From the NCBI GenBank assembly GCA_963825135.1, contig CAWGRW010000009.1, forward strand, positions 2,208,001 to 2,272,000: 64,000 nucleotides of DNA, read 5' to 3'. The DNA is from an uncultured bacterium (GTDB lineage Bacteria; Desulfobacterota_D; UBA1144; Nemesobacterales; UBA2774). Below, piece after piece: positions 1,286 to 35,916 of the stretch (positions within the stretch are counted from its first letter, which is position 1; the number at the start of each line of letters is the position of its first letter). The position numbers and the translations under genes are program-made. The notes beneath the pieces are model-generated. The model saw nothing but the letters and a program-made list of their open reading frames with translations. It was not told the DNA's origin and did not search any database.

Positions 1286-1510
1286 TCACTTTCGGGGGGG
1301 TTCTTTCGACTCCCGTACGAGCCGCTTCAACAGCAGAATCAAAACCCCGGGCTTGAATAATACCGAGATAAAGAATTTGAAATCCTCCCGGCCCGGATAA
1401 ATCTTTACCTCCCACGACCCCACTGCGGCGTTGACGACGACGCTCCCGCTTTCAATCGCAGCGCTTCTTATGACGACGTCAAGCTCGCCTGCGGGACTTG
1501 TTACCTTCAT
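1286..1510 (-). CDS. Small hypothetical protein, downstream of hemY
   Basis: 74-aa ORF overlapping the hemY 3' end, with a hydrophobic C-terminal stretch. Confidence 0.55.
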   Translation of the reverse strand: MKVTSPAGELDVVIRSAAIESGSVVVNAAVGSWEVKIYPGREDFKFFISVLFKPGVLILLLKRLVRESKEPPRK

Positions 1511-2978
1511 CCGCAGCCCTCCGCCCGGTGATGTAAGAGAATATTCCTTCCGCCGCTTCCTCGCCCGAGCGTATGCAATCGGGTACTCCCGCGCCGCCGT
1601 AGGCGTTCCCCGCGAGCCTCAATCCGGGATATGCGGACGCCGTCTCCTTTATCCGGGCTACAAGCGCGACGTGGCCGACCGCGTAATGGGGCATGGATTC
1701 CGGGTTCCGGGTGACCAGGCTGTATAGAGGCCCGGACCTGATGCCTAAAATGGGCGAGAGTGATTCGTGCGCAAGCCCTATGAGCCGTCCGTCGTCCTCG
1801 CGGCATATATTGGGGTTCTGAGCGCCTCCCGCGACGACGCGGAGGAGTACGGTATCTTCGGGACTCCGTCCCGGGAATTTCACGCTGCTGAACGTGCACG
1901 CGAGCACCGGCAGGCGTTCCGACGAAGGGACCAGGAAGCCCGAGCCGTCTAACGCGAGGGCCACGTCGCTCTTCCTGTATCCGACGTTTATCACGGCCGT
2001 CGATACGTATTTGATCCGGGAGAGGCGCTCCGGGAGCTCGAGGTCTATGCCTCCCGTGACGAGTGAGGCCTGAGAGGCCGGAAGCGCCACTATGACGGCG
2101 TCGTATTCGAGAGGGTTCCCGCCGTAAAGATGCACCCTGAATCCCTTTCCCGCGGGCTCGATCCGTTTCACCCTGCTCCTGAGTCTTAGGGAGTTCTGCG
2201 GCAGCCCGGATACGAGGGCCTGAATGAGGGTTTCCATGCCGCGGTTAAAGGTCGCGAACCTCCCGCCCTCTCCGCCGCCGTTTTTAGAGCCGTCTCGCGG
2301 GGCCCTGTTCTTTCTCATCCCGCGCGCGACGCTCCCGTATTGCTCCTCCATTTTCACGAGCCCGGGCAGGGCCGCGCGGACGCTCAGGGTAGCGGGGTCC
2401 CCGGCGTATATGCCGGTCAGCAGCGGCTCCGCTATCCGCTCGTACGCCTCCGCGCCGAACCTCCGCTTAATGAAAGCCGCCGCGCTCTCGTCATCGAGCG
2501 ATTCCCCCCTGGGCAGGAACGGCTCAAGCGTCATGCGGAGCTTCCCTCTCATCGAGAGTATCGGAGAGTTGAAAAGGGCCGCCATGCTCGAGGGGGCCGG
2601 GAACAGCCCGTCAGGCAGCGCAATGAGCTTTCCGCCCCGGACGATGTAGATTTTTCCCGCCTCCCCGCTCGTCCCTATCAATTCGGGCTCGAGGCCGGCC
2701 CTTATGGAAAGGCTGAGCGCCTCGGGCTTGGACCTGAGGAAGGAGTCGGGCCCCTCCTCGGCGAGAAAACCGCCTGAATAACGCGTAGAGATAACGCCCC
2801 CGGGCCTATCTTTGCCTTCGAGCACGGTGAGGTCCAAAGGCAGTCCCCGCTCGGCGCAGAGCCCGGCGAGCCTGTATGCGGCGCTAAGCCCCGTGATGCC
2901 GGCTCCTATGACGGCTATACGGGGCCTCTCGTTCATCCCGAAGCGCGCTCCGGGTGCCGGATTATTATGGCGGCTCAT
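1479..2978 (-). CDS. hemY: HemY-type protoporphyrinogen/coproporphyrinogen oxidase
   Basis: FAD motif IGAGITGLSAA, EEGPDSF, GIYAGDP, C-terminal GNAYGGAGVPDCI. Confidence 0.92.
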   Translation of the reverse strand: MSRHNNPAPGARFGMNERPRIAVIGAGITGLSAAYRLAGLCAERGLPLDLTVLEGKDRPGGVISTRYSGGFLAEEGPDSFLRSKPEALSLSIRAGLEPELIGTSGEAGKIYIVRGGKLIALPDGLFPAPSSMAALFNSPILSMRGKLRMTLEPFLPRGESLDDESAAAFIKRRFGAEAYERIAEPLLTGIYAGDPATLSVRAALPGLVKMEEQYGSVARGMRKNRAPRDGSKNGGGEGGRFATFNRGMETLIQALVSGLPQNSLRLRSRVKRIEPAGKGFRVHLYGGNPLEYDAVIVALPASQASLVTGGIDLELPERLSRIKYVSTAVINVGYRKSDVALALDGSGFLVPSSERLPVLACTFSSVKFPGRSPEDTVLLRVVAGGAQNPNICREDDGRLIGLAHESLSPILGIRSGPLYSLVTRNPESMPHYAVGHVALVARIKETASAYPGLRLAGNAYGGAGVPDCIRSGEEAAEGIFSYITGRRAADEGNKSRRRA

Positions 2979-3276: not shown

Positions 3277-4407
3277 ATGGGAATAACACAGAAGCCTGAA
3301 AGAGCCGATTTTTCGGTTGCGCCCTTTATTGTGATCTGGGAGGTGACCCGGTCCTGCGACCTCGCGTGCCTCCACTGCAGGGCGGACGCGCGGACCTGCA
3401 GGGACCCTCGCGAGCTCACCACATACCAGGGGCGTAACCTCATAGACGATATAGCGGGGTTCGGATCCCCGCTCCTGGTCCTTACGGGCGGCGACCCGCT
3501 TAAAAGGGACGATATCTACGAGCTCATATCGTACGGCGTGGGGAAGGGGTTACGTACCACGGTGTCTCCGAGCGTGACGCCGCTTCTTACGGACGAGTCC
3601 GTCCGCAGGCTCGGGGATGCGGGCATCTCCAGAATGGCTGTGAGCCTCGACGGCTCCACACCCCTCATACACGATTCGTTCAGGGGCGTTAACGGCAGCT
3701 TCGCCAGGACCCTTGAGGTTCTATCTCTCTGCGCGCTCGAGGGCATACCGATACAGGTCAATACGACCGTAACGAAATACAATATAGGGGATTTCGACAA
3801 CATAGCGGACCTCATAAGCGGGTTCAATCCTGTTCTCTGGAGCGTGTTCTTCCTGGTGCCGACGGGGCGGGGGAAGGCGGTCGAAGGGGTGAGCGCGGAG
3901 GAATATGAGGAGGTCTTCGGGAAGATGTATGAGCTCTCGAAGGTGATGCCTTACGACATCAAGTCCACGGAAGCGCCCCATTACAGGCGCTACGCGGCCC
4001 AGGCAGGGGTCCGGGAATCGAGGGCGGGTAACCGGCCTCAGGCCGCGGGGGAAAGGAAGCGGGACGCCATAGGCAGGGCGCCGAGAGGGATAAACGACGG
4101 GAAGGGCTTCGTCTTCGTTTCCCACACGGGCGAGGTCTATCCGAGCGGGTTCTTGCCCCTGTCCGGCGGGAACGTGAAGAACGAAAGCATCGTGGATGTA
4201 TACGGAAACTCGCCGCTATTCAGGGAGATAAGGGACTACGACAGGCTCAAGGGGAAGTGCGGGGTATGCGAGTTCAAGAACATATGCGGCGGCTCGAGGG
4301 CGAGGTCGTACGCCGTGACCGGGGATTTCATGGAGTCCGAGCCATTTTGCGTGTACGTGCCGGAGAGATACAAGAGGGGCGGCACTCAGGATAATCCGGG
4401 AGTGTGA
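3277..4407 (+). CDS. Radical SAM/SPASM protein, AhbD/NirJ-like (heme biosynthesis related)
   Basis: WEVTRSCDLACLHCRA (CxxxCxxC), LTGGDPL, C-terminal KGKCGVCEFKNICGGSRARSYA. Confidence 0.8.
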   Translation: MGITQKPERADFSVAPFIVIWEVTRSCDLACLHCRADARTCRDPRELTTYQGRNLIDDIAGFGSPLLVLTGGDPLKRDDIYELISYGVGKGLRTTVSPSVTPLLTDESVRRLGDAGISRMAVSLDGSTPLIHDSFRGVNGSFARTLEVLSLCALEGIPIQVNTTVTKYNIGDFDNIADLISGFNPVLWSVFFLVPTGRGKAVEGVSAEEYEEVFGKMYELSKVMPYDIKSTEAPHYRRYAAQAGVRESRAGNRPQAAGERKRDAIGRAPRGINDGKGFVFVSHTGEVYPSGFLPLSGGNVKNESIVDVYGNSPLFREIRDYDRLKGKCGVCEFKNICGGSRARSYAVTGDFMESEPFCVYVPERYKRGGTQDNPGV

Positions 4408-4979: not shown

Positions 4980-5018
4980 CACACACACACGTTGTGTGGC
5001 TCTACGATTCTACCGGAA

Positions 5019-5184
5019 CTCCTCAGCTCAAATCGGCAACTGCGGTAATTTCGATTGTCAGCGGCGACTCGCCGCCCCGTTCATGCTGTGGCGCAGAGCC
5101 TGCGCTCGAATACGATCCTGCTGAATCTCCTCAGCTCAAATCAGCAACTGCGGTAATTTCGATTGTCAGCGGCGACTCGCCGCC
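5019..5184. repeat. 58-bp direct repeat, two copies (5019-5076, 5127-5184), one mismatch
   Basis: ctcctcagctcaaatc(g/a)gcaactgcggtaatttcgattgtcagcggcgactcgccgcc occurs twice, 50 bp apart, between convergent genes. Confidence 0.9.
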
Positions 5185-5254
5185 TGTTTATTCTGAGTTT
5201 GTCGAAAGATTTAATGACAGGGCGGGAGCGGAGCACGGAGCGAGTGTGCGTGCG

Positions 5255-5464
5255 CTAGAGGATGCCCTGTTTACGCAGGTCCTTTATGACGACGATTACG
5301 TAGATTATTATGGCCATCCCCATGCACGCCCCGCCCACCGACACGGATAATATCATAGTCAGGGGAGTGAATTTGAAGAGCGTCAGGATTATCGTGACGA
5401 GGGCGATCAGGTTGAGCACTCCCGCCGCTATCACGGCCTTTCTTACCCAGGGATGAGTATTCAT
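5255..5464 (-). CDS. Small two-TM membrane protein, last gene of the cytochrome cluster
   Basis: MNTHPWVRKAVIAAGVLNLIALVTII...; ATGA overlap with the upstream NapC-like gene. Confidence 0.7.
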   Translation of the reverse strand: MNTHPWVRKAVIAAGVLNLIALVTIILTLFKFTPLTMILSVSVGGACMGMAIIIYVIVVIKDLRKQGIL

Positions 5465-6099
5465 TGTTCCTTCCATGCCTCCTCGGGGTGGGGTCTCACG
5501 TGGCAGTCCATGCCGAGACACGACATCTTGCTTGAGAGTATGTCTGCCGCGTTCTTTTCGTGCTCCTCCTCTTCCTGAAACGCTATGACGGGGGCGTGGC
5601 AGCGCAGGCATATGGCGTTGTTATAAGTCCCGTAGAGCTTGACGGGGGTCTTGTACCCCGTGTAATAAGCCCATACGTGGCGTATCCCGCCCATCTTCGC
5701 CTTCATGTTGCCGAATATGCCGTAGTCCGAGTGGCATGTGAAACACTGGTCTTCGGAGACCCAGCGGTTCTGGTAGTGCTCTGAGGCGAGATATTCGCTG
5801 TCCGGGTCTTTCAGATCGTTCACGTACCCGTGCATGACGTGACACGAGTTGCAGAACGCGACCTGCTTCGAGTCCTCTATGGCCACGCTGAAGTTGAGGA
5901 GATATGCGATCGGGGAGAGGATGAAGAAGACGATGAGCAGCACCCATTTCCCGAAGGGCTCGGACAGCTTGTTCCTGTCCCGCGCTAAAACGATAATTAT
6001 GAGGACTATGCCGAGGACGCATATCGCAAGCACTATCCATGCGACAAAGGACATCCCCCCCGCGCCTCCCGCTTCCACGCTCTGTTCAAATGGGTTCAT
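5461..6099 (-). CDS. NapC/NirT (CymA-like) membrane-anchored tetraheme cytochrome c
   Basis: Two N-terminal TM helices; FCNSCHVM, CFTCH, CLRCH and atypical CLGMDCH. Confidence 0.85.
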   Translation of the reverse strand: MNPFEQSVEAGGAGGMSFVAWIVLAICVLGIVLIIIVLARDRNKLSEPFGKWVLLIVFFILSPIAYLLNFSVAIEDSKQVAFCNSCHVMHGYVNDLKDPDSEYLASEHYQNRWVSEDQCFTCHSDYGIFGNMKAKMGGIRHVWAYYTGYKTPVKLYGTYNNAICLRCHAPVIAFQEEEEHEKNAADILSSKMSCLGMDCHVRPHPEEAWKEQ

Positions 6100-6118
6100 T
6101 TATCTCTCGCCCGTTCTC

Positions 6119-6598
6119 TTATTGTTCCTTGAGGCAATCCTGAAATCCCGCTTCCTGCTTGTTTCCGTATTTCAGCGACTCCAGCCAGGCGAGCAAGTCC
6201 TGGAATTCGGCGTCGGTGCCCTTGAACTTCTTTCTCTCTTTCTTCTTGGCGAGCTTCTTGCAGTCAGGCGTGTCCTTGAAATAGTCCTTGGGATTTTTAA
6301 TGAAATCGGTCAGCCACTTCGCGTCCCTGTCCGCGCCTATGTTGGAGAGGTCTCCGCCCTTGGACTCCTCCTTGTCTTCCTCGCTCTCCTTGAGCTCGAC
6401 CCCTTTGGATTTCGCGAATGCCACCTTGGCCGCCTCAATCTGGGCCGACTCGGCCTTGACCGTATGGCACGTATAGCACCGCTTCTCTACAAATATAGCT
6501 ATGCCCTTCTGCTGCACGCTCGCGTCCTGGGCGAATGCCGCGGCCGGTATCATGAGCAGGAGCGCTAATACGTATACATATCCGTGAATTTGTACCAT
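6119..6598 (-). CDS. Periplasmic monoheme cytochrome c
   Basis: Signal peptide ending AAAFA, CYTCH, GGDLSNIG. Confidence 0.85.
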   Translation of the reverse strand: MVQIHGYVYVLALLLMIPAAAFAQDASVQQKGIAIFVEKRCYTCHTVKAESAQIEAAKVAFAKSKGVELKESEEDKEESKGGDLSNIGADRDAKWLTDFIKNPKDYFKDTPDCKKLAKKKERKKFKGTDAEFQDLLAWLESLKYGNKQEAGFQDCLKEQ

Positions 6599-7140
6599 GG
6601 TGTGTAAACCCCCTTGTATTTTATAGTTTCGTGACACGTTCCGCACACTTTATTCATGGGCTCTCTCAGATAGACCTCCTTTTCCGGGTCGAGCTTTATT
6701 TCCATGCCCGTCTCTTCCCTGAGCCCGGGAGCGGCGATGATCCTGAGAAAATCCATGCTCCGCTTGTCGAGCTCGGCCCCGTAAACCTTACGGCCCTTTA
6801 TCACGCCCTCCGGGTGCGGGTCGTGGCACGTAAAGCAGGCTATCTTCCCGTTCTCGTCCCCGGGGAGCGGCTTTGCGTCCTTCCCCTCGTGCTCTTTCGA
6901 CCCCGGGTGTATCGTTTCGTCGTGGCACCCGAGGCAGTTCTCGGAAGGGGCGTCCACGAGGAAATACGTCGGGCTCTTCTTCCCCTCCTTCGGGACCTCC
7001 GTATGGCAGTCGAGGCACACGAACTCGTCGTCGACCATCCCGGTATGGGGGTTGTCCTCCTCATCCTTTTTTTCCTGCGAGACGAGGAAGGTGGGGACGA
7101 GCACGATGAGCACGGTTATCAGCATATATCTAATAATCAT
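6565..7140 (-). CDS. Tetraheme c-type cytochrome
   Basis: Signal/TM segment; CLDCH, CLGCH, CFTCHDPH, CGTCH. Confidence 0.88.
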   Translation of the reverse strand: MIIRYMLITVLIVLVPTFLVSQEKKDEEDNPHTGMVDDEFVCLDCHTEVPKEGKKSPTYFLVDAPSENCLGCHDETIHPGSKEHEGKDAKPLPGDENGKIACFTCHDPHPEGVIKGRKVYGAELDKRSMDFLRIIAAPGLREETGMEIKLDPEKEVYLREPMNKVCGTCHETIKYKGVYTPWYKFTDMYTY

Positions 7141-7753
7141 ATCCGCCCTTCGTATGACACGTGTTGCAGAACGTTACCTGGTGGCAGCTCCCGCACTCTC
7201 TCGGGTTGGCGCGCGCCTCGACCCCGTGGATCAACCTGAAATTCCTGTCGTGGACCATTATTGTGGGGAGGTCTCTTCGATTGTGACAATCCTCGCAGAA
7301 CCGGGGCGCGTGGCAATTTTCACACGACTCCTCGTCGGCTTTGGCGAAGACGGCGTGCTTCTCCGTCCAGTTAAAATTGTGATTCTTGGGCTCGATTTCG
7401 GCCATGTTGACATGGCACAGGCTGCACTCTCCCGGCGCAACGTTGCCGGCTTCCGGATTGAAATGACAGAAATGGCACGTCTCCTTTCCGGGGAAGAAGG
7501 ACTGCTTGGACGCCTTGATGGCCTCTTCGATGCTCTTTTCGTCCTTGGCTTCCACGTTCATGGGATGGCAGACGAAGCAGTCGAACCCCTCCTTCTCCAT
7601 CACCTTCTTGTGCGCCTCGTGCGAGAAATTCATGCTTACGTCGAGCGGAACCTTCGGTTTCGCGCCCGAAGCGTTCTCCTCCTTGTTCTGGGCGCCGCAC
7701 CCCGCGAGCGCGAACACCGCCGCCGCTAATATCAATATCGCTCTCTTCATCAC
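7130..7753 (-). CDS. Heptaheme c-type cytochrome lipoprotein
   Basis: Lipobox LAGC; FSHEAH; CFVCH, CHFCH, CSLCH, CENCH, CEDCH, CGSCH, CNTCH. Confidence 0.88.
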   Translation of the reverse strand: MMKRAILILAAAVFALAGCGAQNKEENASGAKPKVPLDVSMNFSHEAHKKVMEKEGFDCFVCHPMNVEAKDEKSIEEAIKASKQSFFPGKETCHFCHFNPEAGNVAPGECSLCHVNMAEIEPKNHNFNWTEKHAVFAKADEESCENCHAPRFCEDCHNRRDLPTIMVHDRNFRLIHGVEARANPRECGSCHQVTFCNTCHTKGGYDY

Positions 7754-9051
7754 ATGCTCGTCGAAAAGTAGTAACTCAATCCCAAATCCACCCTTATGTC
7801 CTTGTTAAATTCCGGGTTCGTGTTGAACTCGAGAGCGGTCCTGAGTACGAGGTCTTTCAATATCATGTAGTCGCTCCCGACTATATAGCTGAAGGCGTTG
7901 CCGCTCTGGTTCGTAATCTTGTTATAGTATGCGTACGCAAAGGCGAACTGCAATTGCCATCCGCTCCTTATTTGCTCATACAGGCTTGTGTTCACACCTA
8001 CGGCGTAGTCGGTCTGCTCGCCCCCGTCGATATAGTAAAACCCCTGAAAGGCCCTGAGCCCCATGTTCTTCCAGAAGTCGAACATGAAGCCGAGCTTTGC
8101 TATATTCCCGTTCGTGCTCGTGTCCTCCGAAGGGTCGTAGTTGGAATACGCGTAGCTCCCGTTGATCTCCAGGTAGGAGACCGGAACGTACGTGACGCCT
8201 ACTTTCGCCTGCTGGAGCCTTCCTACGGAAAATATGTCGAATATCGGGTCGAGCTGGAAGTCGTTCCTCTGCTGATCCAGATTGTAGTTGTCGTATTCGA
8301 GGTTGAGGTAGAGGGACCGGAGTACCGTGATGCCCACTCCAGTCGTGAGGAGACCGAGGTTCCCTTCGCCTACGTCTATCTCCGCGAGGCCGTAAATGTC
8401 GGCGAAATCCGTATAGGGGACGGCCCTGTTGAAGGTGACGTTAATGAACTGCCTCGATGAGAAGTTGTCAGGGGCGTAGACCTCGTAGCCGACGGAGATT
8501 ATGGATCCCAGTATTGCGTCCGTTTTCAGTTTGAGGCCGAATATGCCGTAGCTGTCGCCCGGCCTCTCGGGTTCCGGCTGAAGGTCGTTTTCCTGATATC
8601 CCCCGTAAGCGGTTATCTCAAGCCCTTTCATGGGTTTTACCTTGACGAGCGCGCCGTCCATGAGTACGAAGTTTACTCCCTCCGTCATCGCCTGCCTGCC
8701 GAGCCTCACCTCGTACGTGCCGGGCGTATTCGAGATATCGACGAAAGCGTTATAGACGTCCAGCGACTCCTGGTCGCCGTTGAATATCTCCCTTCCTCTG
8801 AGAAAAGTGTTGAAGTAAACATTGTGGTCGGGGGAAACGGTGCTGAGGTCGAGGTATTGGTAAAAAGGGTAAACGTCTTTCTTGTCGCCGTCAGGGTTTA
8901 GCAGCGGGGTAGGGGCCTGAAACAGCATAAAGGCGTTTCCATAAAGACCCAGACTCCTCGGGCGTATTATCTCTGTCTGCCCGTATGCCGCAACTCCCCC
9001 CGTTGCCGAGAGCAGTAGCATTGTCGCCGCACATAAAATATTTTTCGGCAT
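7750..9051 (-). CDS. Putative outer-membrane beta-barrel (cytochrome-associated porin)
   Basis: Signal peptide; aromatic/Gly-rich amphipathic strands (EVRLGRQ, near-terminal VDLGLSYYF); sits among multiheme genes. Confidence 0.75.
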   Translation of the reverse strand: MPKNILCAATMLLLSATGGVAAYGQTEIIRPRSLGLYGNAFMLFQAPTPLLNPDGDKKDVYPFYQYLDLSTVSPDHNVYFNTFLRGREIFNGDQESLDVYNAFVDISNTPGTYEVRLGRQAMTEGVNFVLMDGALVKVKPMKGLEITAYGGYQENDLQPEPERPGDSYGIFGLKLKTDAILGSIISVGYEVYAPDNFSSRQFINVTFNRAVPYTDFADIYGLAEIDVGEGNLGLLTTGVGITVLRSLYLNLEYDNYNLDQQRNDFQLDPIFDIFSVGRLQQAKVGVTYVPVSYLEINGSYAYSNYDPSEDTSTNGNIAKLGFMFDFWKNMGLRAFQGFYYIDGGEQTDYAVGVNTSLYEQIRSGWQLQFAFAYAYYNKITNQSGNAFSYIVGSDYMILKDLVLRTALEFNTNPEFNKDIRVDLGLSYYFSTSM

Positions 9052-9059
9052 TTGAAAGA

Positions 9060-9374
9060 CTACTCCGTAAGTCCAGGTACGCCGTTATCTCCATGACAAA
9101 TCGGACAGCTCGCAAGCCCTTCCTGCACGGTAAATTCGCGTATATCCTCGAGCAGCAGGACCCCTAGACCGGAACGGTCCTCCTGGTGTATCACCTCGAG
9201 CGGGTGACACGCGAAACAATCTTCCCTCCCCCATCCGTCGGGATGTTCTTCCTCTGTCAGTTTAATCCCCTCGACCCCGTCAAAGATGTTCCCCCAGTCC
9301 TGCCCCTTGTCATCCTCGCTGACGCACGAGGCGAGTAGGAATATAAGCAATATCAACAGGACGAGCTTTTTCAT
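9060..9374 (-). CDS. Small diheme c-type cytochrome lipoprotein
   Basis: Lipobox LASC; CFACH and CPICH. Confidence 0.85.
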   Translation of the reverse strand: MKKLVLLILLIFLLASCVSEDDKGQDWGNIFDGVEGIKLTEEEHPDGWGREDCFACHPLEVIHQEDRSGLGVLLLEDIREFTVQEGLASCPICHGDNGVPGLTE

Positions 9375-9396
9375 GTCGTGTTTGTCCTTGCATTTA

Positions 9397-11647
9397 TTAC
9401 ATATCGGGACGGTTTATGCGTTCTGCCGGCGAGAGCGGAGGCAGGTGCACTTCCGCGGCGCCGAGCGGGTCGCCCGCGGCATGGCAGTTTATGCATGCTG
9501 ACTCCGGCTGCGGCCCTCCCAGGTGGTTTTCGCCCGTGAGCGCGTCGCCCGCTGCATTCACGACCACGTCGTCGTGACACGAAGTACATACCGTGATTAC
9601 GGGCTGGGTCGAGAATGTTTCAAGGACGTCGTTCTCCTCGCCTACCTTCGTGAACTTCCTGTTCACGGTCGCGAGTATCCCCGGGCCCAGAATGCCCGTT
9701 CCGGGATTGAGTATGTTCGTATTGGGCAGATGACATGCCCTGCAGTCGTTCGTCGCCCCCGGGTAAAGGACGTCGCTGAAGTCGTTGAAGCTGCCCCTGA
9801 AACCGTATATCACGTAGGGTGTTACAGACAGGTTTTCGCCGGTGTGTATCTTGTGAATCATCTCCCTGAAGTCTATCGACGTCGTTGTGGGCGTCATGCT
9901 TCCCGTCCAGTCGGGTACGGGTCTGGTCGATATATCGTCGTCAGACGGGTTATGGCAGAGCACGCAGTATTCGGTGTTATTGCGCAGGTTGCCGTGGACG
10001 CTGAAGTCCTCGGAGAATACCCCGTGACAGGAATTGCAGAATTCGTCCTCCGTTGTATTGTCGACTACGACCCTCCTCGGCACGGGTATGATGTCTGTGA
10101 CCCCGAAGTAGCGGACTACGTTCTTCCCTGCCTCATCCACATCCTCGAACAGGATGAGGTTCTCTCCGCCCACCTTTCTCACGATCCTGCCCTCGATGCC
10201 CACCGCGTATGTTCCTGTGGCGTCATTCGGGATTATTCCCTGGAATGTGTATTTGTAGTTTCCTTCCGCGTCGGGCCCTTCGGCAGCGTCGACAGGCGAC
10301 TCACGGAGGAAGTTGTCCACTCCGGGGGTCTCAACGCCGGTTCCGCTGTAGTCCTGTATGTTGTAATCGGTCGTCGGACCCGCTATCACCAGGCTTATCG
10401 AGTCCATGTCCGCCAGGTTAACTACTGCGCCCGCGTCCGTTTTAAGGCTGAACGTGACTTCCGCGTGGTCGCCCGGGCGAACCCTCTGTTTCCCTGTCTC
10501 GGCGCTCCTCACGTCTACGATTTCGAAGTTCAACCCGGGAGGGTGGAGGCCTTGAGCGGTACGGTGTGGAGCCCGGTTACCGAGATATCGAACTCGGTAT
10601 TCGACTGCGGGATGTGACAACCCGAACAGTTGTTGTCGTTTAACTGTACCGTGGGATGATTTGTGGCCGTGGCGAAGTCGACATTGTCATGGCAGGAGCC
10701 GCATGAAGCCCTCGTCGGGTCGTTCTTGTAGTCATTGGCCTGGGACGCGAGGGATTCGTCGTGGCACTTGGTGCAGTTCCTTATGTCCTGCGGGAATACG
10801 ACGGTCGAGAAGTCGTGAACGGTATCATTGAACCCGGTTATGAAATACGGCATTCCCGCCTCGACGCTCGGAAGCATCTCCCCCATGTGTATCTTATGTA
10901 TCATTATGTTGAATCCGATACTGTTACCCGAATCGGGGTCGATCTGTTCGACCGTCTCTCCGGTTTCCGGGTTAATGATCTTGCTCGAATGGCACGTAAT
11001 ACAGACCCCCACGTCCCTCCTGGCCCCTCCGTGGAGCGCGAGCGGGTCGTGACATGTATTGCACGATTCGGTCGCGACGATGTCCCTCACGGTCTTGACA
11101 GGGCCGCCGTCGGGAACGAAATCGAATGTCGCGTTCGACACGAACGTCTGGCTCCCGATCGTCTTTTCTCCGTATAGCGCTATGGTGTGGGTAAGACTCG
11201 CGTCGTATCCCTGGGGCAGCATTATGGCGTACTTATAATTATAGGTGCCCCCGCCTAGGTCTGTATACTCGCCTTCGTCCTCGGAATCTGCCTGTGTGGC
11301 CCCTTTCTGGTCCCTCGTAATGTAGTCGATGTACTCACCGCTCTCGACTATCCTCGCGATTATGAAGCTTATATCGACGCCGTTCCTGCTTATCGGGTTT
11401 CCGTTTTCATCGGTGAGCTTGATCGTTGCGACAGGATGGTTGTCGTCGCCGATGAATGCGTCGGTTATTTCAATATTCAGCTTGTTGCCTTCAACGGGCG
11501 GCGGCGGTGGCGGCGGGGGAGTTATGCCTCCTCCCCTCCTCCTCCGCATCCTCCATAAACCGAGATTAACAGGAATGGGAAAACGATCAATCGGACAAGA
11601 AAAGAACGGAAAATGCCTTTATCTTGATTATTCATCCTGCCGTTCAT
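9397..11647 (-). CDS. OmcA/MtrC-family decaheme cytochrome lipoprotein, split by two single-base frameshifts (~11535, ~10536)
   Basis: ATG at 11647 with RBS and lipoprotein signal ...ISVYGGC; Gly/Pro linker; 5 hemes (CNTCH, CITCH, CTKCH, CGSCH, CSGCH) plus 5 hemes (CNSCH, CVLCH, CRACH, CTSCH, CINCH); two MIHKIH motifs typical of OmcA/MtrC. Confidence 0.85.
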
Positions 11648-11922
11648 AGTACCCTCTCCTTTAAGAACGACTCTTGTTAAACATTAAATAACATGAAATG
11701 GAATGTTTTATAAGAGTTAATTTTAATGACAAGTGTTTATGGGTCTGGCTATACGGCGCATGGAATTTTACTCCGGCCGGTGCGCTTGAATCACTACCCG
11801 GGCTGAATTATTTATCATGACCGGGAAATGAAAATAGCAGGCTTTATTCTCAAAAACGACACGGCCGTTTCCGGCACAAAATCAGAAAGGGGTTAAGTCC
11901 GCATCCGCCCCGTTTTGTACGC

Positions 11923-11939
11923 TGTCAGATAATCGGACG
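11923..11939. promoter_or_regulatory. TGTC-N9-GAC(G) palindrome
   Basis: TGTCAGATAATCGGACG is 15/17 identical to the site upstream of the cco operon. Confidence 0.55.
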
Positions 11940-11991
11940 AAGTCGCCACGGACGAAACTCAGATTATCTCATAATGACAGATGGTTATGTT

Positions 11992-12797: not shown

Positions 12798-13139
12798 CTA
12801 TCTGCGTATCCGTTTAGCCATCTGCTTCATAACATGTAGTGCGAAGTACGGATGTGAATGAACGAGACGCGTGAAACTCTTTTTGTCTATGGGTACTAGC
12901 TGACAATCCGATATAGCAACAGCTGTAGCACTTCTGAGGCCTTCATCAATAAGTGCCATTTCTCCTAAAACATCACCCGGTCCGGCCATTTCAATTACTT
13001 TGTCGCCTATTATGATTTCTACTTCTCCGTTTTTAACGGCGTACATTTTTTCGCCGGGTTCCCCTACCTTGAAGATCACTTGGCCGGCCGGATAGGATTC
13101 AAAATCAGTTGAGTGCCGAAACAAATTTACAGTTTCCAT
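12798..13139 (-). CDS. Stand-alone cyclic-nucleotide-binding domain protein
   Basis: IFKVGEPGEKMY...GEVEI...LGEMALIDEGLRSATAVA; no HTH. Confidence 0.9.
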   Translation of the reverse strand: METVNLFRHSTDFESYPAGQVIFKVGEPGEKMYAVKNGEVEIIIGDKVIEMAGPGDVLGEMALIDEGLRSATAVAISDCQLVPIDKKSFTRLVHSHPYFALHVMKQMAKRIRR

Positions 13140-13399
13140 CTCGAACAACCTCCCATATCTTTGTGATTAGTTAATAGGCTTCTACTAGAGGGCGGTTACT
13201 AGGAAGCAGCAACTTCCTTACATAGCACAACCAAAAAGTATAAGCCAGAAGCGAAATCATACCATACAGATTCCAATTAAGTGTTAAGTTCATGTTAAGG
13301 TTAAGCTCACAAAAATACCCACCTTTTCCACAGACCTGGGATTCGACAGCCAGGACGGATTCTATTACGGGAATATTCAGGTTCAATGAGAGGGGTTTT

Positions 13400-13940: not shown

Positions 13941-14807
13941 ATGACAAGTAACTGTTTCATTCCAGCTGTCATACTAGTTTTCCTTTTCTTGCCGTCAACT
14001 GGTCTGAGTACGGCAGAAGAGAATCCCTGCTCCGAACCCTGCTACCCCGGCGTTATATCCCCTCCCGGTAAACCTGAGACCGAATGGGAGAAAGCCAATT
14101 GGGACAAAATATTAAAAGGACGAGAAATCGCTCTCAACACATACGAACTCTTGGGGCCTGAGTTCGTCGTCGCCAAGCTGCACTGCGGAAGCTGTCATCT
14201 GAACGCCGGCGGCAACCCCGACGCTGCTTGGTTCGTGAATATGGAGGAGAAATATAAAACGAAGATAAGGCTGCAGGAGAGAATAAATAGGTGCTTTGAC
14301 CGAAGCATGAACGGGACCCCCGTATGCGACAGTGAGAACGGAGAGTGCAATGATAATCCCGTCATGGAAAGCCTAATATCATACATGGAATGGATCACCA
14401 GCCGGTGGCGGAAGGAGGGCTTGCCCCCCTCGCCGGAAGACTTCCCGCAGATAGCAGCTCTCGAAAGAAACCCGGAAAGGGGGAGAATGACGTACATTCA
14501 AAAGTGCAGCTTCTGTCATAATGCCGATGCCCGGGGCATATACGAGGGCGGAAAATATATACGCCCCGCGCTCGTGGGACCGAACTCATTCAATGCCTGT
14601 GCCGGGATGGCAGAGCTTAAAAAATTCACCCGATTTATAAAAGCCAACATGCCTTACGGAAGCGGAGGCTCGCTTACGGACCAAGAAGCGTGGGACATAG
14701 CGACTTTTATCGACGGCGAGTGCCGCCCCGGAAAGGGGAAAGACCGGAACGGAAATATTTGCTCCGAGAGCAGAATGTGCAAAAACGGAAAGCCTCTGAA
14801 CGAATAA
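13941..14807 (+). CDS. TsdA-like diheme cytochrome c (thiosulfate dehydrogenase family)
   Basis: Signal peptide; CGSCH; RINRCFDRSMNG (Cys heme-ligand motif of TsdA); CSFCH; GAGMA-like CAGMA; ANMPYG. Confidence 0.72.
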   Translation: MTSNCFIPAVILVFLFLPSTGLSTAEENPCSEPCYPGVISPPGKPETEWEKANWDKILKGREIALNTYELLGPEFVVAKLHCGSCHLNAGGNPDAAWFVNMEEKYKTKIRLQERINRCFDRSMNGTPVCDSENGECNDNPVMESLISYMEWITSRWRKEGLPPSPEDFPQIAALERNPERGRMTYIQKCSFCHNADARGIYEGGKYIRPALVGPNSFNACAGMAELKKFTRFIKANMPYGSGGSLTDQEAWDIATFIDGECRPGKGKDRNGNICSESRMCKNGKPLNE

Positions 14808-25156: not shown

Positions 25157-26704
25157 ATGAATGATCTGAAAAAAACAAAAAAAGAGCTTGCTGCGGAATT
25201 GGAAGTGCTCCGGAAAAAGATCAAATCATATGAAAGTCAGGACGGCGGGGAGAGCGCATTATTCGGGAACAATTACAGCTTCATAGTCGAATCCGTACCT
25301 AGCGGGATAGTCATGACGGACGATACAGGGAAGATTATTTTCGTGAATTCCCTCGTAAATGCGACGCTCGGATACGGGGACGGGGAGCTTCTCGGAAAAA
25401 GTATCGAGATTCTCGTCCCGGAACGCTACCGCAGGGCGCATCCCGTATTCAGAGATACATTCATGATGTCGCCGATCTCAAGACCGATGGGGAAAGGGCG
25501 TGATCTTTTCGCCCTGAAGAAGGACGGTTCCGAGCTCCCGGTAGAGATAGGCCTCAATCCCGTGAAGACTAAAAACGGGTTCGTGGTGCTCAGCACCCTT
25601 ATCGATATCACGGAGAGGAAATTAGCCGAGAGGATGCTGCGGGAAGGGGAAGAGAGACTCCGCGGGATAATGGAAAATACGTCCGACGCCGTGCTGCTCT
25701 TTGACGGCGACGGCCGGATCGAATCTGTAAACAGGGCGGGGCTTGTACTTTTTACCGGCAGCGAAAACGGGGAAATCGGGAACATTCGGGAAATAATCAC
25801 GCCTGAACAAAGGGAGAGCTTCACGGCGAAGCTGAGAAACGCGAAAGAGGGTGTTTCGGTTACGGACTTCGAGACGGAATTGATGAGGAAAGACGGCAGG
25901 AGAGTCCCAGTGAGCATCAGCCTCGTTTATATGAACCACGGCGGCGGGAGGTTCATTGAGACGGTGAGGGACATTTCCGCAAGAGTAGCGATGAGAAAGA
26001 AAATAATAGAGCTCGAGAAATCCCAGATAGTGGGGAGGATGGCTGAAGGTTTCGCCCATCACATGGGTACTCCGCTCGCATCCATGCTGCTCAGGGTACA
26101 GATGCTCAAAGAAGACGTATCGGATATAACGGGATATGAGGGGATTCTGGAGAAACTGGATTCGATTGAAAGACAGATCCTCTACGGCCAGAAAGTGATA
26201 CAGAGGCTTCTCAAGTTTGTCGGCAACCCCATAAGCGAAAAGAGTCCCGAGGACGCGGCGTCCATTCTGATCGAGTCGGTAGACCTTATCAGGCCTCTTC
26301 TCAAAAAGAAAATCATAGACGTGCTCGTGGAAACGGAAGATAATTTAACGATACTCACCGACACGAACTTGCTCCACCTCGTGTTCACCGATACCATAAT
26401 GAACGCAGTCGACGCAATGCCCGGAGGCGGATCACTCACCTTGACAGCATCGGGCGATAAAGTGCCGGGCTTAGCAGTAATAACGATAAACGATACCGGG
26501 GACGGTATCCCCAAAGAGATTATTCCTTACGTGTTCGAGCCCTTTTTTACGACGAAGCCTGCCGGAATGGGCACGGGGCTCGGCCTCTCCGTCGCAAAAC
26601 GTATCATAAGCGACCACGGCGGCGAGATTTCCTTAAAGAGCAAGGAGGGGGAGGGCACCACCGTTACTATCAAACTTCCAATATTTTCCAAGGAGCAGCA
26701 ATAG
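25157..26704 (+). CDS. Cytoplasmic PAS-PAS histidine kinase (first PAS FixL-like)
   Basis: PAS LVPERYRRAH...RPMGKGRDLFALKKDG; H-box FAHHMGTPL; NAVDAM, DTGDGI, FEPFFTTK, GTGLGL. Confidence 0.92.
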   Translation: MNDLKKTKKELAAELEVLRKKIKSYESQDGGESALFGNNYSFIVESVPSGIVMTDDTGKIIFVNSLVNATLGYGDGELLGKSIEILVPERYRRAHPVFRDTFMMSPISRPMGKGRDLFALKKDGSELPVEIGLNPVKTKNGFVVLSTLIDITERKLAERMLREGEERLRGIMENTSDAVLLFDGDGRIESVNRAGLVLFTGSENGEIGNIREIITPEQRESFTAKLRNAKEGVSVTDFETELMRKDGRRVPVSISLVYMNHGGGRFIETVRDISARVAMRKKIIELEKSQIVGRMAEGFAHHMGTPLASMLLRVQMLKEDVSDITGYEGILEKLDSIERQILYGQKVIQRLLKFVGNPISEKSPEDAASILIESVDLIRPLLKKKIIDVLVETEDNLTILTDTNLLHLVFTDTIMNAVDAMPGGGSLTLTASGDKVPGLAVITINDTGDGIPKEIIPYVFEPFFTTKPAGMGTGLGLSVAKRIISDHGGEISLKSKEGEGTTVTIKLPIFSKEQQ

Positions 26705-28060
26705 TGAGCCCTGAAAAATTCAAAGTGCTTGTTGTTGATGACGATAAGGAGTTTATCGAGGCGGTCAAAGAGCTCCTCGAACGTAATAGCTATCAGGTGC
26801 TAACCGCGTATTCGGGGAAAGAGGCGCTCGAAAAAGCGGCCGAGGAGGACGGGCTCAGGCTCGTGCTGCTCGATCTCGTGATGCCGCTTATGGATGGTTT
26901 CACTCTCCTCGAGAAACTCATGGACCTGATACCGGGGTTGACTGTGATTATGGTTACGGGTCAGGGAACCGTGCAGACGGCGGTCGAGGCAATCAAACGG
27001 GGGGCTAAAGACTTTATATCGAAGCCCTTCGATAAAGACGTTCTCCTTAACAAACTCGAAGTGATAAGAAAAGCGGAAGAGCTTGAGAATAAAGTCAGCA
27101 CCCTGAATGTGCTCCTTTCTGAAAAATACGGCTTCGACAATATCATAAGCGGCTCCAAGCTGATGAAAACGGTTTTCGAGAGGGCTTCCGCGGCCGCCCA
27201 CAGCAATGCGCCCGTATTCATTGTGGGCGAGACGGGTACGGGAAAAGAGCTCCTGGCCAAGGCCATACACCTGAGCGGCGAGAGGGCGGGCAAACCCTTC
27301 GTCGGTGTTAACTGCGGGGCTATACCCAAAGACCTTCTCGAATCCGAGCTCTTCGGATACCGGAAAGGGTGCCTTCACCGGGGCAGTGAGGGACCATGAG
27401 GGCCTGTTTGTCGCGGCGGAGAAGGGGACGATATTTCTCGATGAAATAGGGGAGATGCCTAAAGAGCTCCAGGTGAGATTGCTTCGGGTGCTCGAAGAAT
27501 ATAAAGTGCGTCCTATCGGGCATACGCAGGAGATATCGCTCGACGTAAGGGTTATATCCGCAAGCAACCACAGCATAGAGGATCTCAAGAAGACTTACCT
27601 GAGGGAGGATCTCTTCTTCAGACTCGCCGTTATAGTGATAGAGCTCCCTCCGTTGAGGGACAGAAAGGGGGATATCCCTCTCCTCATTGACCACTTCGTA
27701 AGCAGATTCAGTAATAAGTACTCGAAGAAGGTTAAAGGTCTCTCCGAAGGGGCGTTCAGCTCACTCTACAACTACGACTTCCCCGGTAACATCAGGGAGC
27801 TCGAAAATCTGATAGAGGGTATCATTGCCGTGATACCATCCGGCAAGAACACCATTACGGAAAAAGAGCTTAAGGAACATCTGCTCTGGCAGCAGCCCAA
27901 GAGCTCCGAGCACCAGATCCTCGCCCTCGACAGGCTCGAGAAATTCGCGCTCGAGCAGGCGCTAAGGGAATGCAAGGGGAACAAATCGAAGGCCGCCGAT
28001 ATACTCGGCATCTCGAGGGACACGCTTTACAGGAAGCTTAAACAATACGAGGTTGAATAG
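26704..28060 (+). CDS. NtrC-family sigma54-dependent response regulator, +1 frameshift at ~27365
   Basis: Receiver VDDD/DLVMP, Walker [23 protein letters not shown] spanning the shift, [15 protein letters not shown], Fis-type HTH. Confidence 0.9.
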
Positions 28061-28155: not shown

Positions 28156-28932
28156 TCAAATCCGGAAGGTGTGATTATCTTGCTTCGAATATGTATCCGC
28201 CGGCGCAGGGTCACTGTCGACAGCCGAGCATACAGCATTACCATGAACCGTTCCCCGGAGCGGTATCACATGGATTGCGAAATTGGCGAGCCCGACCAGT
28301 ATCAAAATAATCCCCGCTATGATGCTCAGTTTCCTGGGCGCTAAACCGATTGATCTCTTGTAGAAAAAGGGGAGGAAGGACAACGCCGGCACCGTCCCGA
28401 GCCAGAAGATTAAAAGCACCGCGCCCCCGTACAAAGGATTCTTCGTCGCGACCGAGCCGATCACGAATATGTAGACCCATCCGCATGGTATGAACCCGTT
28501 GACGAGACCGAGCGTGAGCGCAGCAAGGGGTTTCTTCTGGGTGAGAGACCATCGGGCCGGAATTGTCAGCAGGGAAGTGACGAGCCTGTCGGGTATGAGC
28601 TCAAGACGCCTGCCTCTCACGAGGTTGAGGCCCGCATATATGAGGAATAGAGACAGGAGGATTAGTGAGGCCCTCGAAATAAGCGGGTAGTTATTGCTCA
28701 GGAATTTTTCTCCCAGCAGTCCCGCCAATACCCCGAGTGAGAGGTAGCTTGCCAGCCTGCCCAGATGGTAGAGCGGGAGGTACCCGATCCTGCTGTGCAC
28801 GGTTATCGCGATAGGGCCGCACATGGCGGCGCAGTGCGAGCTGCCGACCAGGCTCGCGATAAACACCCCGACGGGCACGGACAGGTACGACCAGCGGCCT
28901 ATTATCTCGCTAAATTGACTTAGGTCCGACAA
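28156..28932 (-). CDS. cbb3 biogenesis DsbD_2/TauE-like membrane protein
   Basis: SHCAAMCGPI, YHLGR, NGFIPCGWVY, FWLGTVP; last gene of the cco operon. Confidence 0.85.
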   Translation of the reverse strand: MSDLSQFSEIIGRWSYLSVPVGVFIASLVGSSHCAAMCGPIAITVHSRIGYLPLYHLGRLASYLSLGVLAGLLGEKFLSNNYPLISRASLILLSLFLIYAGLNLVRGRRLELIPDRLVTSLLTIPARWSLTQKKPLAALTLGLVNGFIPCGWVYIFVIGSVATKNPLYGGAVLLIFWLGTVPALSFLPFFYKRSIGLAPRKLSIIAGIILILVGLANFAIHVIPLRGTVHGNAVCSAVDSDPAPADTYSKQDNHTFRI

Positions 28933-30337
28933 GCTGTATGTCCTCCTCCGCTTCTATCTTATTGTTCTTCTCATCTATGAAACTAAGCTTAACCGATTCC
29001 GTCCCGCTGCTCCCGGTTACGGTCTGAGGGAACTTGACGAAGAAATGAACGGTCAGGTCCTTCCCAGCTCCGAGATCGTATGATTCGCTCTGGGAGATGA
29101 TCTCGATTTTCTTCTCCTTTAATTCCTCGGGGATTATCATCTTTAGCCGGATATCGTCGAACGACTGATTCTTCATGTGCATTTTGAAATGGTTTATTAT
29201 CACTTCGCTCCCGTCCCCGTTCTTTATGATCTGAAACGGCGTGTCTTTTCCGCGAAGGATCGTAACGACTATTTCTTCTCTCCTCTGAACTGAAAATATC
29301 AACGCGCTGACGACGGCTACGAGCAGAACTACGTATATCGCGACCCTGGGCCGAAGCCATCTTGTCTTGAGTCCCTTGAGAGTCCTCCCGGTAGCGTATC
29401 TTATGAGCCCCTTTGGTTTTTCTATCTTCTCCATGACCTCGTCGCATGCGTCTATGCACGCCGTGCACCCTATGCACTCAAGCTGGAGGCCGTTCCTTAT
29501 GTCTATGCCGGTGGGGCATACGGCGACACACTTGTAGCAGCTGATGCAGTCGCCCTCGGTCTGGCCCGGCTTTACGCTCCCCTTCCTCGGCTCGCCCCTC
29601 ACGGAGTCGTACGAAACCGTGAGCGAGTCGTCGTCGAGAAGCACCGACTGGAACCTGCCGTAAGGGCATACTATTATGCAGAACTGTTCCCTGAACCACC
29701 CGAAGTCGAACAGGAACACGGCGGTAAGAAAGGCCATGATGACGAATATTGTCCAGTTCTCTCCCGGGTTGTGCCGGGTCATCTCGACGAGCCTGTCCGC
29801 ACCCACGAAATAAGCGAGAAAACTGTGGGCGATCACGAGGCTTGCTATTGTAAAAAGGGTCCAGAGGACTGAGAGCTTCAGAAATTTTCTCACGTCCCAC
29901 GGGGCCTGTGCGAGGTTCCGCTGCTGAACGTGGCTCCCGATAATCAGGTATTCGAGCCTTCTGAAGATGCCGTCTATGAACACCGTCTGCGGGCACCCCC
30001 ATCCGCACCATATCCTTCCCCATACCGCGGTCACGAACGCGAGCCCTATCGTGAGGAAAGCCAGTATAAAGAAAATCAGCGGCGCGTCGTGCGCCCAGAA
30101 GGTAAGACCGAAAATGGAGAATTTCCTCTCTCCGATATTGAGTAGCAGCGCCTGGTGTCCCCCTATCTTTATCCACGGGAGCACGAGGAAGAAGATGACG
30201 AGGAATATCTCCGTGACCGTCCTCAATTTCCGCCATAGGCCCGAAACCTGCGCCGGGAATATGAAGACCCTCTTTCCTTTTTCATCCATGGTCGCCGGAC
30301 GCTCGTCCGGGAGGTGTCTCTGATCTAGTACTTTCAT
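28910..30337 (-). CDS. ccoG: cbb3 oxidase accessory ferredoxin-like protein CcoG
   Basis: GRIWCGWGCPQTV, REQFCIIVCPYGRFQ, CISCYKCVAVCPTGIDIR, CIGCTACIDAC. Confidence 0.95.
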   Translation of the reverse strand: MKVLDQRHLPDERPATMDEKGKRVFIFPAQVSGLWRKLRTVTEIFLVIFFLVLPWIKIGGHQALLLNIGERKFSIFGLTFWAHDAPLIFFILAFLTIGLAFVTAVWGRIWCGWGCPQTVFIDGIFRRLEYLIIGSHVQQRNLAQAPWDVRKFLKLSVLWTLFTIASLVIAHSFLAYFVGADRLVEMTRHNPGENWTIFVIMAFLTAVFLFDFGWFREQFCIIVCPYGRFQSVLLDDDSLTVSYDSVRGEPRKGSVKPGQTEGDCISCYKCVAVCPTGIDIRNGLQLECIGCTACIDACDEVMEKIEKPKGLIRYATGRTLKGLKTRWLRPRVAIYVVLLVAVVSALIFSVQRREEIVVTILRGKDTPFQIIKNGDGSEVIINHFKMHMKNQSFDDIRLKMIIPEELKEKKIEIISQSESYDLGAGKDLTVHFFVKFPQTVTGSSGTESVKLSFIDEKNNKIEAEEDIQLVGPKSI

Positions 30338-30903: not shown

Positions 30904-31087
30904 GGTTGTCCTCCTTTGATCTGAATCTCTCATCCTCGAGGGGAAGGCGCTCCATCTCCTCGATCTCGGCCTTCGGTTTCTTAAGCGCCCAGAGTACTAT
31001 CATTACAAAGGCCGAGAGGAACAGGACGAGGGCTATGATGATAATCTCTATGTCCGTAAAATATGAAAGTGCTATCTGGTTGATGAC
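30896..31087 (-). CDS. ccoQ: CcoQ-like small subunit (no canonical start codon at expected position)
   Basis: VINQIALSYFTDIEIIIIALVLFLSAFVMIVLWALKKPKAEIEEMERLPLEDE...; lies between ccoNO and ccoP. Confidence 0.7.
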   Translation of the reverse strand, partial: VINQIALSYFTDIEIIIIALVLFLSAFVMIVLWALKKPKAEIEEMERLPLEDERFRSKEDNHA

Positions 31088-35866: not shown

Positions 35867-35901
35867 CACGGTATTTGTTACTCTTTGACAGTTCTTTACG
35901 G

Positions 35902-35916
35902 GCAATAACTATGCCA
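35902..35916 (-). promoter_or_regulatory. sigma54 -24/-12 promoter of the cco operon
   Basis: Minus strand TGGCATAGTTATTGC, 35 bp before ATG 35866. Confidence 0.8.

Follow-up and report, generated by a model that had tools for sequence, protein, structure and literature searches.

Gram-negative bacteria are known to exchange electrons with minerals and electrodes through porin-cytochrome conduits. Conduits of the Mtr type and of the Pcc type have been described as having no relationship, and co-evolution with MtrAB has been claimed for MtrC. Can the surface cytochrome of the one type nevertheless be paired with the barrel of the other? The question is raised by an operon of eight co-oriented genes on the minus strand (positions 5255-11647) of a 64,000-nucleotide stretch of DNA, called the window here, from an uncultured soil bacterium of the Dadabacteria (contig CAWGRW010000009.1 of assembly GCA_963825135.1, positions 2,208,001 to 2,272,000). 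We conclude that the operon probably encodes a porin-cytochrome type conduit for extracellular electron transfer (EET) across the cell envelope, built from parts of two known systems. A first-pass annotation made from the sequence had listed these eight genes with about 28 heme motifs, and a recount bears it out: 27 CXXCH motifs and one CX4CH, 28 altogether, in genes separated by gaps or overlaps of 4-34 nt. Stop-to-stop frames with at least two CXXCH motifs number only 13 in the whole 3.13-Mb genome and six of them lie in this cluster, so the clustering is not a matter of chance.

The 433-aa product of the gene at 7750-9051 had been described as barrel-like and smaller than MtrB, and structure prediction upholds the description. 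The AlphaFold2 model, built on an alignment of 35 sequences, has 22 strands by DSSP, a mean predicted local distance difference test (pLDDT) value of 82.4 and a predicted template modelling score (pTM) of 0.68; MtrB has 26 strands. A structural search against representatives was headed by the 22-strand barrels of TonB-dependent receptors (Z 18-20.6, root-mean-square deviation 3.3-3.9 A over some 350-360 residues), the MtrB chain 6r2q_B aligned with a Z of 16.3 (4.3 A, 334 residues), and Foldseek likewise placed the protein among outer-membrane barrels. The model is all barrel and has no counterpart of the plug domain found in the TonB receptors; the lumen must therefore be filled by something else. 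No Pfam family (E<=0.1) and no NCBIfam family was found for this protein, PF11854 included.

The candidate occupant is encoded next to the porin gene, at 7130-7753, by a gene whose start overlaps the porin gene end by 4 nt. It is a 207-aa heptaheme lipoprotein with the lipobox LAGC and about 27 residues per heme, and all seven of its CXXCH motifs, together with the lipobox cysteine (Cys19), are invariant in 17/17 sequences. When residues 25-433 of the barrel were modelled with residues 19-207 of the heptaheme protein, each with its own alignment, the interface score ipSAE was 0.80, 0.78 and 0.79 in three runs and 0.00 in the best of three controls; the runs gave some 300 contacts and shared at least 77% of them, and the pLDDT of the partner was 62-63. 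Of 157 solved complexes 116 attain this ipSAE mark, as do 2 of 215 mismatched pairs; the counts are rough here because the alignments differed from those used for calibration. On the barrel, the confident contacts line the lumen, falling on alternate, inward-facing strand residues all the way round and on loops 158-165, 268-275 and 341-350, and on the heptaheme side the interface takes in residues 118-203, which belong to the half with hemes 4-7. In this way the heptaheme protein is predicted to have its C-terminal half inside the barrel, in keeping with the earlier suggestion that a small heptaheme protein takes the place of MtrA. By the usual topology rule for outer-membrane proteins, in which termini and short turns are periplasmic, the long loops would be extracellular, so the C-terminal hemes would reach the outer rim while the lipidated N-terminal half would lie on the periplasmic side. 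Profile searches of the PDB with the barrel (best E 0.22) and with the heptaheme protein (best E 0.13) turned up no chain of similar sequence, and the predicted complex is thus not the recall of a sequence relative. We propose that the heptaheme protein is a trans-barrel wire and a functional analogue of MtrA/OmaB.

What stands outside the barrel? The surface cytochrome is a true member of the OmcA/MtrC family. Its gene (9397-11647), two genes upstream of the porin gene, encodes a decaheme lipoprotein and starts at ATG 11647 behind a Shine-Dalgarno sequence (AGGAGAGGG); the signal peptide ends in the lipobox VYGGC. The start frame stops after 41 codons and is followed by two long open reading frames (ORFs), so that the gene is read in three frames. 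The ORF at 10530-11549, with five CXXCH motifs, scored 257.7 bits against TIGR03507 (profile 5-313, cut-off 209.3), which endorses the MtrC-type assignment of the first-pass annotation; that at 9397-10620, with the other five motifs, scored 153.9 bits (profile 338-672), and each long ORF matches PF22113, the Pfam model for domain II/IV of MtrC/MtrF. Intact relatives score 377-457 bits with TIGR03507, and the intact 747-aa orthologue from the related locus L017 matches MtrF 3pmq (4e-32), OmcA 4lmh (6e-20) and 6r2q_C (3e-17). No cysteine beyond those of the heme motifs and the lipobox was found in the window ORFs or in the orthologues from L004, L007 and L017. These MtrC homologues therefore lack the domain-III CX8-15C disulfide, by which they differ from their Shewanella counterpart; the accessible text of Edwards et al. 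2015 (PMC4486940) reports this disulfide in all clades of outer-membrane multiheme cytochromes and ties it to flavin binding and aerobic growth.

Is the arrangement peculiar to one genome? A pattern scan, with one genome taken per species and gene presence scored by tblastn with the window proteins, showed that gene order is conserved across 24 related loci from Dadabacteria, Binatia and other metagenome-assembled genomes (MAGs). The record titles of these loci name Dadabacteria, Thermodesulfobacteriota, Binatia, 'Polyangiaceae UTPRO1' and bacterium HR37. The MtrC and diheme genes are present in 24/24 loci and the heptaheme and tetraheme genes in 22/24 each, the same two contigs ending inside the porin gene in both cases; the five-gene outer module, from MtrC to tetraheme, is thus present wherever the contig reaches it. 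The monoheme gene adjoins the tetraheme gene in 18/24 loci, the NapC-like gene was found in 15/24 (four contigs end too early and five loci are without it in the available flank), and the gene for the 69-aa protein in 12/24 at E<=1e-5. The number of hemes does not vary among the extracted ORFs: two in the diheme protein, seven in the heptaheme, four in the tetraheme, one in the monoheme and 3+1 in the NapC-like protein. Within the phylum of the window genome the barrel occurs in 25 of 120 species genomes, with 8/9 in its own genus, 24/49 in three families of one order and 0/70 in the other six families. MtrC follows it closely: it is found in 23 of the 120, all of them among the 25 with the porin, and in 0/95 of the genomes without the porin, and in the two porin-bearing genomes that lack MtrC the porin lies at the end of a contig.

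In some relatives the outer module keeps different company. Before the NapC-like gene, at L007:11777-14996 and L017:11782-14952, a Rieske protein is inserted together with a cytochrome b and an octaheme cytochrome, and a set of Rieske protein, cytochrome b and multiheme cytochrome follows the tetraheme gene at L012:5340-8889; the cytochrome b of these relatives comes closest to ExtP of Geobacter (219.8 bits, under the cut-off of 290). From these alternatives it follows that the five-gene outer module is the invariant unit and that the quinol module varies. Contigs of two soil runs (X1 and X3), which match the operon, diverge from the window exactly at 5251, just past the last gene, with the same loose-end sequence in both; the relatives have a different neighbour there, and this fits a cassette boundary.

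The smaller members of the operon can be given putative roles around the barrel. The diheme lipoprotein (9060-9374, 104 aa, lipobox LASC) has two CXXCH motifs and a lipobox-like cysteine in 24/24 loci; it has no Pfam family at E<=0.1, its nearest Protein Atlas clusters are unnamed, as are those of the barrel, and it is a possible adaptor at the barrel or at MtrC. The tetraheme cytochrome (6565-7140, 191 aa) has a cleavable-looking signal peptide as its one N-terminal hydrophobic segment, matches PF09699, PF14522 and PF14537, keeps four CXXCH motifs in all 22 extracted ORFs and is proposed to act as a periplasmic relay. A periplasmic carrier is proposed in the class-I monoheme cytochrome c (6119-6598, longest ORF to 6646), which has a signal peptide, belongs to PF00034 (8e-9) with a weak likeness to FixO, has cytochrome c555 as its best PDB match (8e-7) and is duplicated in L004, L007 and L017.

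At the inner-membrane end, the claim that the operon has its own quinol dehydrogenase of the NapC/NirT type finds support in the product of 5461-6099, a tetraheme protein of the NapC/NirT/NrfH superfamily that scores 38.3 bits with PF03264 (cut-off 24.1). Its three CXXCH motifs and one CX4CH, and a CXXCHxM at motif 1, are invariant in 16/16 sequences. Against the NCBIfam equivalogs for NapC, NrfH and TorC it scores far below every cut-off (39 versus 310 and 35 versus 134, for example). A hydropathy scan gives it two N-terminal hydrophobic segments, predicted to be helices; canonical NapC/NirT/NrfH members have a single N-terminal anchor helix. We propose that it is a quinol dehydrogenase or a quinone reductase. 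The start of the last gene (5255-5464) overlaps the end of the NapC-like gene, and its relatives likewise lie directly after that gene in the 12 loci where they were detected. The 69-aa product has two hydrophobic segments, predicted as transmembrane helices, and no Pfam or NCBIfam family was found for it; a role as membrane partner of the NapC-like protein is proposed.

To which kind of conduit does the operon belong? An Mtr assignment was rejected: MtrB_PioB (PF11854) was not found in the genome, which is 94% complete, as the earlier claim of a non-Mtr composition would have it, and matches to TIGR03508 (DmsE/MtrA) in the cluster reach 27 bits at most against a cut-off of 192. The operon resembles Shewanella MtrCAB (6R2Q) with CymA in its NapC/NirT-family quinol dehydrogenase, its putative periplasmic carriers, its predicted heme wire in a barrel and its outer decaheme cytochrome of the MtrC family. 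It departs from that system in a barrel of 22 strands where MtrB is larger, in a wire with seven hemes and a lipid anchor where MtrA has ten hemes, and in encoding the quinol dehydrogenase within the operon.

The barrel and the wire point to the Pcc type. FeGenie (2020), in the portion available, states that Dadabacteria encode porin-cytochrome operons homologous to those of Geobacter, and its supplement lists two genes of contig MFCJ01000044.1, our locus L004, as homologues, by BLAST, of the 'porin' and 'periplasmic cytochrome' (pc) proteins that Shi et al. 2014 (PMC4245776) compiled for Pcc. The L004 heptaheme protein, 92% identical to that of the window, is matched there to Thermovibrio ammonificans 'pc' (7e-44), and the L004 barrel, 91% identical, to Desulfurobacterium thermolithotrophum 'porin' (5e-19); both reference proteins belong to Pcc group III in the sections of Shi et al. 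available to us. From this listing the barrel and heptaheme pair is of a known kind. The 'non-canonical architecture' of the first-pass annotation consequently holds for the combination of parts, which is unusual, but not for this pair. The same sections give Pcc porins 18-22 strands, inner cytochromes 5-14 hemes and very diverse outer cytochromes, with associated membrane and periplasmic cytochromes, and the layout set out in sections 6 and 8 is what we find here: a 22-strand porin, an adjacent heptaheme protein and an MtrC-type lipoprotein nearby.

As the available descriptions have it, the closest known systems are the Geobacter-type Pcc clusters (OmbB-OmaB-OmcB and relatives), group III above all. 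They share with the operon a small porin whose gene neighbours those of a compact inner cytochrome with several hemes and of a multiheme lipoprotein of the outer membrane, and they too have further cytochromes and a quinol-active membrane protein close by. The operon is unlike them in that its outer cytochrome is an OmcA/MtrC-family decaheme and not OmcB-like, in that its inner wire has a conserved lipobox cysteine whereas Pcc inner cytochromes are described as periplasmic, and in its additional diheme lipoprotein. Where the Pcc of Desulfurobacterium and Thermovibrio is described with an eight-motif cytochrome that resembles cytochrome b, this operon has the NapC/NrfH-like protein and its two-helix partner; the comparison with group III (Denitrovibrio, Desulfurobacterium, Thermovibrio) is with a text description in which the families of the outer cytochromes do not figure. 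Named Pcc proteins were not reached by the heptaheme profile, a widened barrel profile, a search of representatives or 10 distant clusters, all of which returned unnamed or 'hypothetical' MAG proteins; the exhaustive search of representatives found 240 clusters at E<=1e-3, 79 at <=1e-10 and 15 at <=1e-30. There is a further likeness, as far as the published excerpts go, to MtoAB-MtoD-CymA of the iron oxidiser Sideroxydans and to PCC3 and PCC4, where a monoheme cytochrome c and/or an inner-membrane redox protein are encoded in one operon, although Mto is described without an MtrC-type outer cytochrome. PCC3 and PCC4 were rejected as assignments: in the accessible text of He et al. 2017, PCC3 has cytochromes with medians of 34 and 21 hemes, porins of up to 42 strands and a five-helix inner-membrane protein with two HX13H motifs, and PCC4 has no extracellular cytochrome, whereas the cytochromes here have 1-10 hemes and the sole small membrane protein has two helices and 69 aa.

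Neither a gene-for-gene match to the eight-gene cluster nor a pairing of MtrC with a Pcc barrel was found in the literature searched, with subscription journals outside its coverage, and this agrees with the first-pass annotation. The same holds for a lipidated inner wire, for the diheme lipoprotein and for an in-operon NapC/NrfH-like protein with two helices and a two-helix partner. The available portions of PMC9386147, PMC8258643, PMC10732223, PMC11748539, PMC12545173, PMC13186404 and PMC11434368 contain nothing on the cluster. What is unusual is the combination of parts and not the principle of a barrel with a wire.

These observations suggest a path for electrons from the inner membrane to the cell surface. 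The NapC/NrfH-like tetraheme protein, probably with the 69-aa two-helix protein, would exchange electrons with the pool of quinones at the inner membrane, and the soluble tetraheme cytochrome, possibly with the monoheme cytochrome c, would carry them over the periplasm. The heptaheme lipoprotein would be held by its N-terminus at the outer membrane's inner leaflet, with its C-terminal four-heme half threading the plugless 22-strand barrel up to the extracellular loops. There it would hand electrons to the decaheme MtrC-type lipoprotein at the surface, with the diheme lipoprotein as a possible adaptor, and MtrC would touch the external acceptor. A bolder proposal, which we advance tentatively, is that this is a distinct and self-sufficient class of conduit in which a Shewanella-type MtrC is mounted on a Geobacter-type Pcc barrel through a lipid-anchored heptaheme protein and a diheme adaptor, the five genes forming a mobile cassette with interchangeable quinol modules.

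Several points weigh against this reading. A conduit role for any member of the cluster is deduced from sequence and from models. The NapC module is absent beside the outer module in five loci that extend far enough to include it (L011, L012, L015, L018 and L027), so the term 'self-contained' used by the first-pass annotation fits the window cluster but does not hold family-wide. The score of the complex is the model's own confidence; MtrAB is a solved analogue, and a learnt picture of a cytochrome in a barrel may be driving the model. On its own the heptaheme protein folded poorly (AlphaFold2 pLDDT 41.2, pTM 0.26), too poorly for a fold search, and its sidedness comes from the topology rule and not from coordinates. 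The link to Pcc rests on supplementary BLAST rows of a paper and not on a direct comparison. An inward flow of electrons to an oxidase would agree equally well with the class-I monoheme cytochrome c, which is weakly similar to FixO, and with a host that is aerobic. Lastly, MtrC is interrupted twice in the window genome, from which no same-strain reads were found.

That interruption admits the reading that MtrC in the window genome is a true pseudogene with two real frameshifts, which would leave the conduit without its surface cytochrome or unused. We consider such decay improbable and the frameshifts quite likely to be errors of consensus or assembly. Both frameshifts, each equivalent to 1 nt, are present in the assembly as the first-pass annotation had reported, at about 11545-11560 and at 10531-10533. 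Compared with L017 and L004, the window carries five extra bases at the 5' site; they lie in a (GGA)n/G run close behind the lipobox, where real slippage is possible. No read run contained half of the sampled words of the source strain (best run 0.29). Beyond the two breaks, however, the MtrC frames have no further stops or decay; the 747-aa orthologue of L017 is 88% and 80% identical to the two long window ORFs and its alignment runs gap-free over the PG|LNF junction, and a junction placed exactly at ...LPG|LNF... means that one base was lost and nothing more. The other seven genes of the operon are intact, and in 19 relatives the MtrC frame is open over 687-824 aa. In contigs of three soil-metagenome runs (90-99% alike) there is a net +1 base at 10532-10576 and there are five fewer bases at the 5' site, and in the near-identical ones (95-99% alike) the net change is +1 base at the one site as at the other; these compensating bases open the frame in the soil relatives and not in the window strain, on whose own frameshifts contigs of relatives are silent. 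The same assembly breaks other genes. The sigma-54 response regulator at 26704-28060 (plus strand) is split into ORFs 26704-27399 and 27305-28060, its invariant GAFTGA motif broken by an apparent extra G in a G run near 27366-27372, which points to indel errors in the assembly, and a DAO-family flavin adenine dinucleotide (FAD) oxidoreductase at 37485-38743 (minus strand) is split into ORFs 37485-37883 and 37934-38743, which match complementary parts of PF01266. The source contig is 2.79 Mb long, and other relatives on long contigs show similar splits, in MtrC of L027 and G007 and in the barrel gene of L017, a long-contig MAG of a close relative (L017:8001-9303, ORFs 8001-8765 and 8392-9303). 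One metatranscriptome yielded just two 151-nt contigs, on 9610-9927, and does not show transcription of the window operon.

The direction of electron flow, as the first-pass annotation had allowed, is not told by sequence, and on the evidence of genes and gene neighbourhoods we lean modestly towards outward flow, with inward flow the weaker prospect. As a full account of the operon, an inward conduit is unlikely: in it Fe(II), reduced minerals or humics would donate electrons to MtrC and the heptaheme protein, the monoheme cytochrome c would pass them to cbb3 or aa3 oxidases, and the NapC-like protein, or the Rieske/cytochrome b of the relatives, would drive a part of them uphill into the quinone pool, a scheme that has been proposed for MtoAB-MtoD-CymA. 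The monoheme cytochrome and its duplication in three relatives suit this role, and so does an aerobic host that has alternative complex III and three heme-copper oxidases, one of them encoded in the window itself, 17-24 kb from the operon, by a cbb3 cluster (28156-35905, minus strand) with a fused CcoN-CcoO (720 aa), CcoP, CcoG, a DsbD_2-family membrane protein and a CcoI-like P-type ATPase; section 7 of Shi et al. 2014 also names MtrK/MtoD and CymA as carriers associated with Mtr. Section 6 of that paper, on the other hand, describes Fe(II)-oxidising mtr clusters without mtrC, and the accessible text of He et al. 2017 reports no MtrC/OmcA homologue in 73 genomes of iron oxidisers; both count for outward flow, as does the joining of the outer module to quinol-oxidising Rieske/cytochrome b modules in relatives. 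The large subunit of RuBisCO was not found in the 94% complete genome, which weighs against autotrophy of the Calvin-Benson-Bassham type alone and leaves mixotrophy untouched. The acceptor, for its part, might be soluble or colloidal, with the module serving extracellular elemental sulfur, polysulfide, selenite, tellurite or humic quinones and not metal oxides. For this, Shi et al. place Pcc in the sulfur reducers Thermovibrio and Desulfurobacterium and, in the text available, argue that some Pcc serve substrates other than Fe/Mn oxides, and the cytochrome b of the relatives is nearest to ExtP, from a selenite/tellurite operon; no catalytic subunit (molybdopterin, rhodanese or similar) was found in or beside the operon, however, and MtrC-family proteins have so far been tied to minerals, flavins and electrodes, so we hold this to be a distinctly unlikely explanation. 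A host that is otherwise an aerobic heterotroph and that turns its conduit outward to Fe(III)/Mn(IV) oxides, humics or similar acceptors when oxygen runs out is the more likely picture.

The surroundings of the operon complete the description. The intergenic region upstream of it (11648-11980, same strand) has a lower G+C content and is the presumed promoter region; scans for promoters (6 found versus 4.6 +/- 2.2) and for terminators (12 versus 7.1) did no better than in shuffled sequence. In the spacer between a CBS-domain gene and the end of the operon there are two copies of a 74-nt direct repeat (5003-5076 and 5111-5184, plus strand), 92% alike and each ending in a GC hairpin (GCGGCGACTCGCCGC). 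Beside the 28-heme operon are heme-related genes at 1479-2978 (minus) and 3277-4407 (plus), and those recognised there are for a protoporphyrinogen oxidase (TIGR00562, 290 bits) and a radical SAM/SPASM protein (TIGR04053, 461 bits) that is also close to the heme b synthase AhbD (366 bits, below the cut-off). The gene at 13941-14807 (plus), 2.3 kb upstream of the operon and adjoining a gene for a cyclic nucleotide (cNMP)-binding protein (12798-13148), encodes a 288-aa protein with two CXXCH motifs and PF13442 in its C-terminal half, for which no NCBIfam family was found. At the far end, a gene that starts at 62475 and runs past the window end at 64000 (L029:2475-4835, plus) encodes a 786-aa protein with six CXXCH motifs, for which no Pfam or NCBIfam family was found. 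Elsewhere in the genome, at G000:C9:1670271-1672622 (L028:6275-8623), a 782-aa protein has eight CXXCH motifs fused to TPR repeats; it and ActA of alternative complex III are the only further large multiheme cytochromes there. The genome also encodes a type II secretin (514 bits); in Shewanella, type II secretion has a role in the display of MtrC.

The chimaera of Mtr and Pcc parts, an MtrC free of the disulfide and the lineages that host them are noteworthy and not startling. If the pairing is true, the surface module would be portable between types of conduit, and a 22-strand barrel with a seven-heme wire would be a compact system to express and to solve. Were the tentative proposal of a mobile class of conduit also correct, the cassette would move among Dadabacteria, Binatia and other uncultured lineages of soil and groundwater, drawing either on the NapC-like protein with its two-helix partner or on a Rieske/cytochrome b/multiheme set as its quinol module, and its MtrC would work without the oxygen-sensing disulfide and flavin switch; abundant phyla regarded as 'aerobic heterotrophs' would then gain an unrecognised mineral respiration or bidirectional electron exchange. 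A capacity for EET in Dadabacteria and Binatia, widespread uncultured lineages of the soil and subsurface that are usually read as aerobic heterotrophs or methylotrophs, would bear on the cycling of iron and manganese at oxic-anoxic interfaces.

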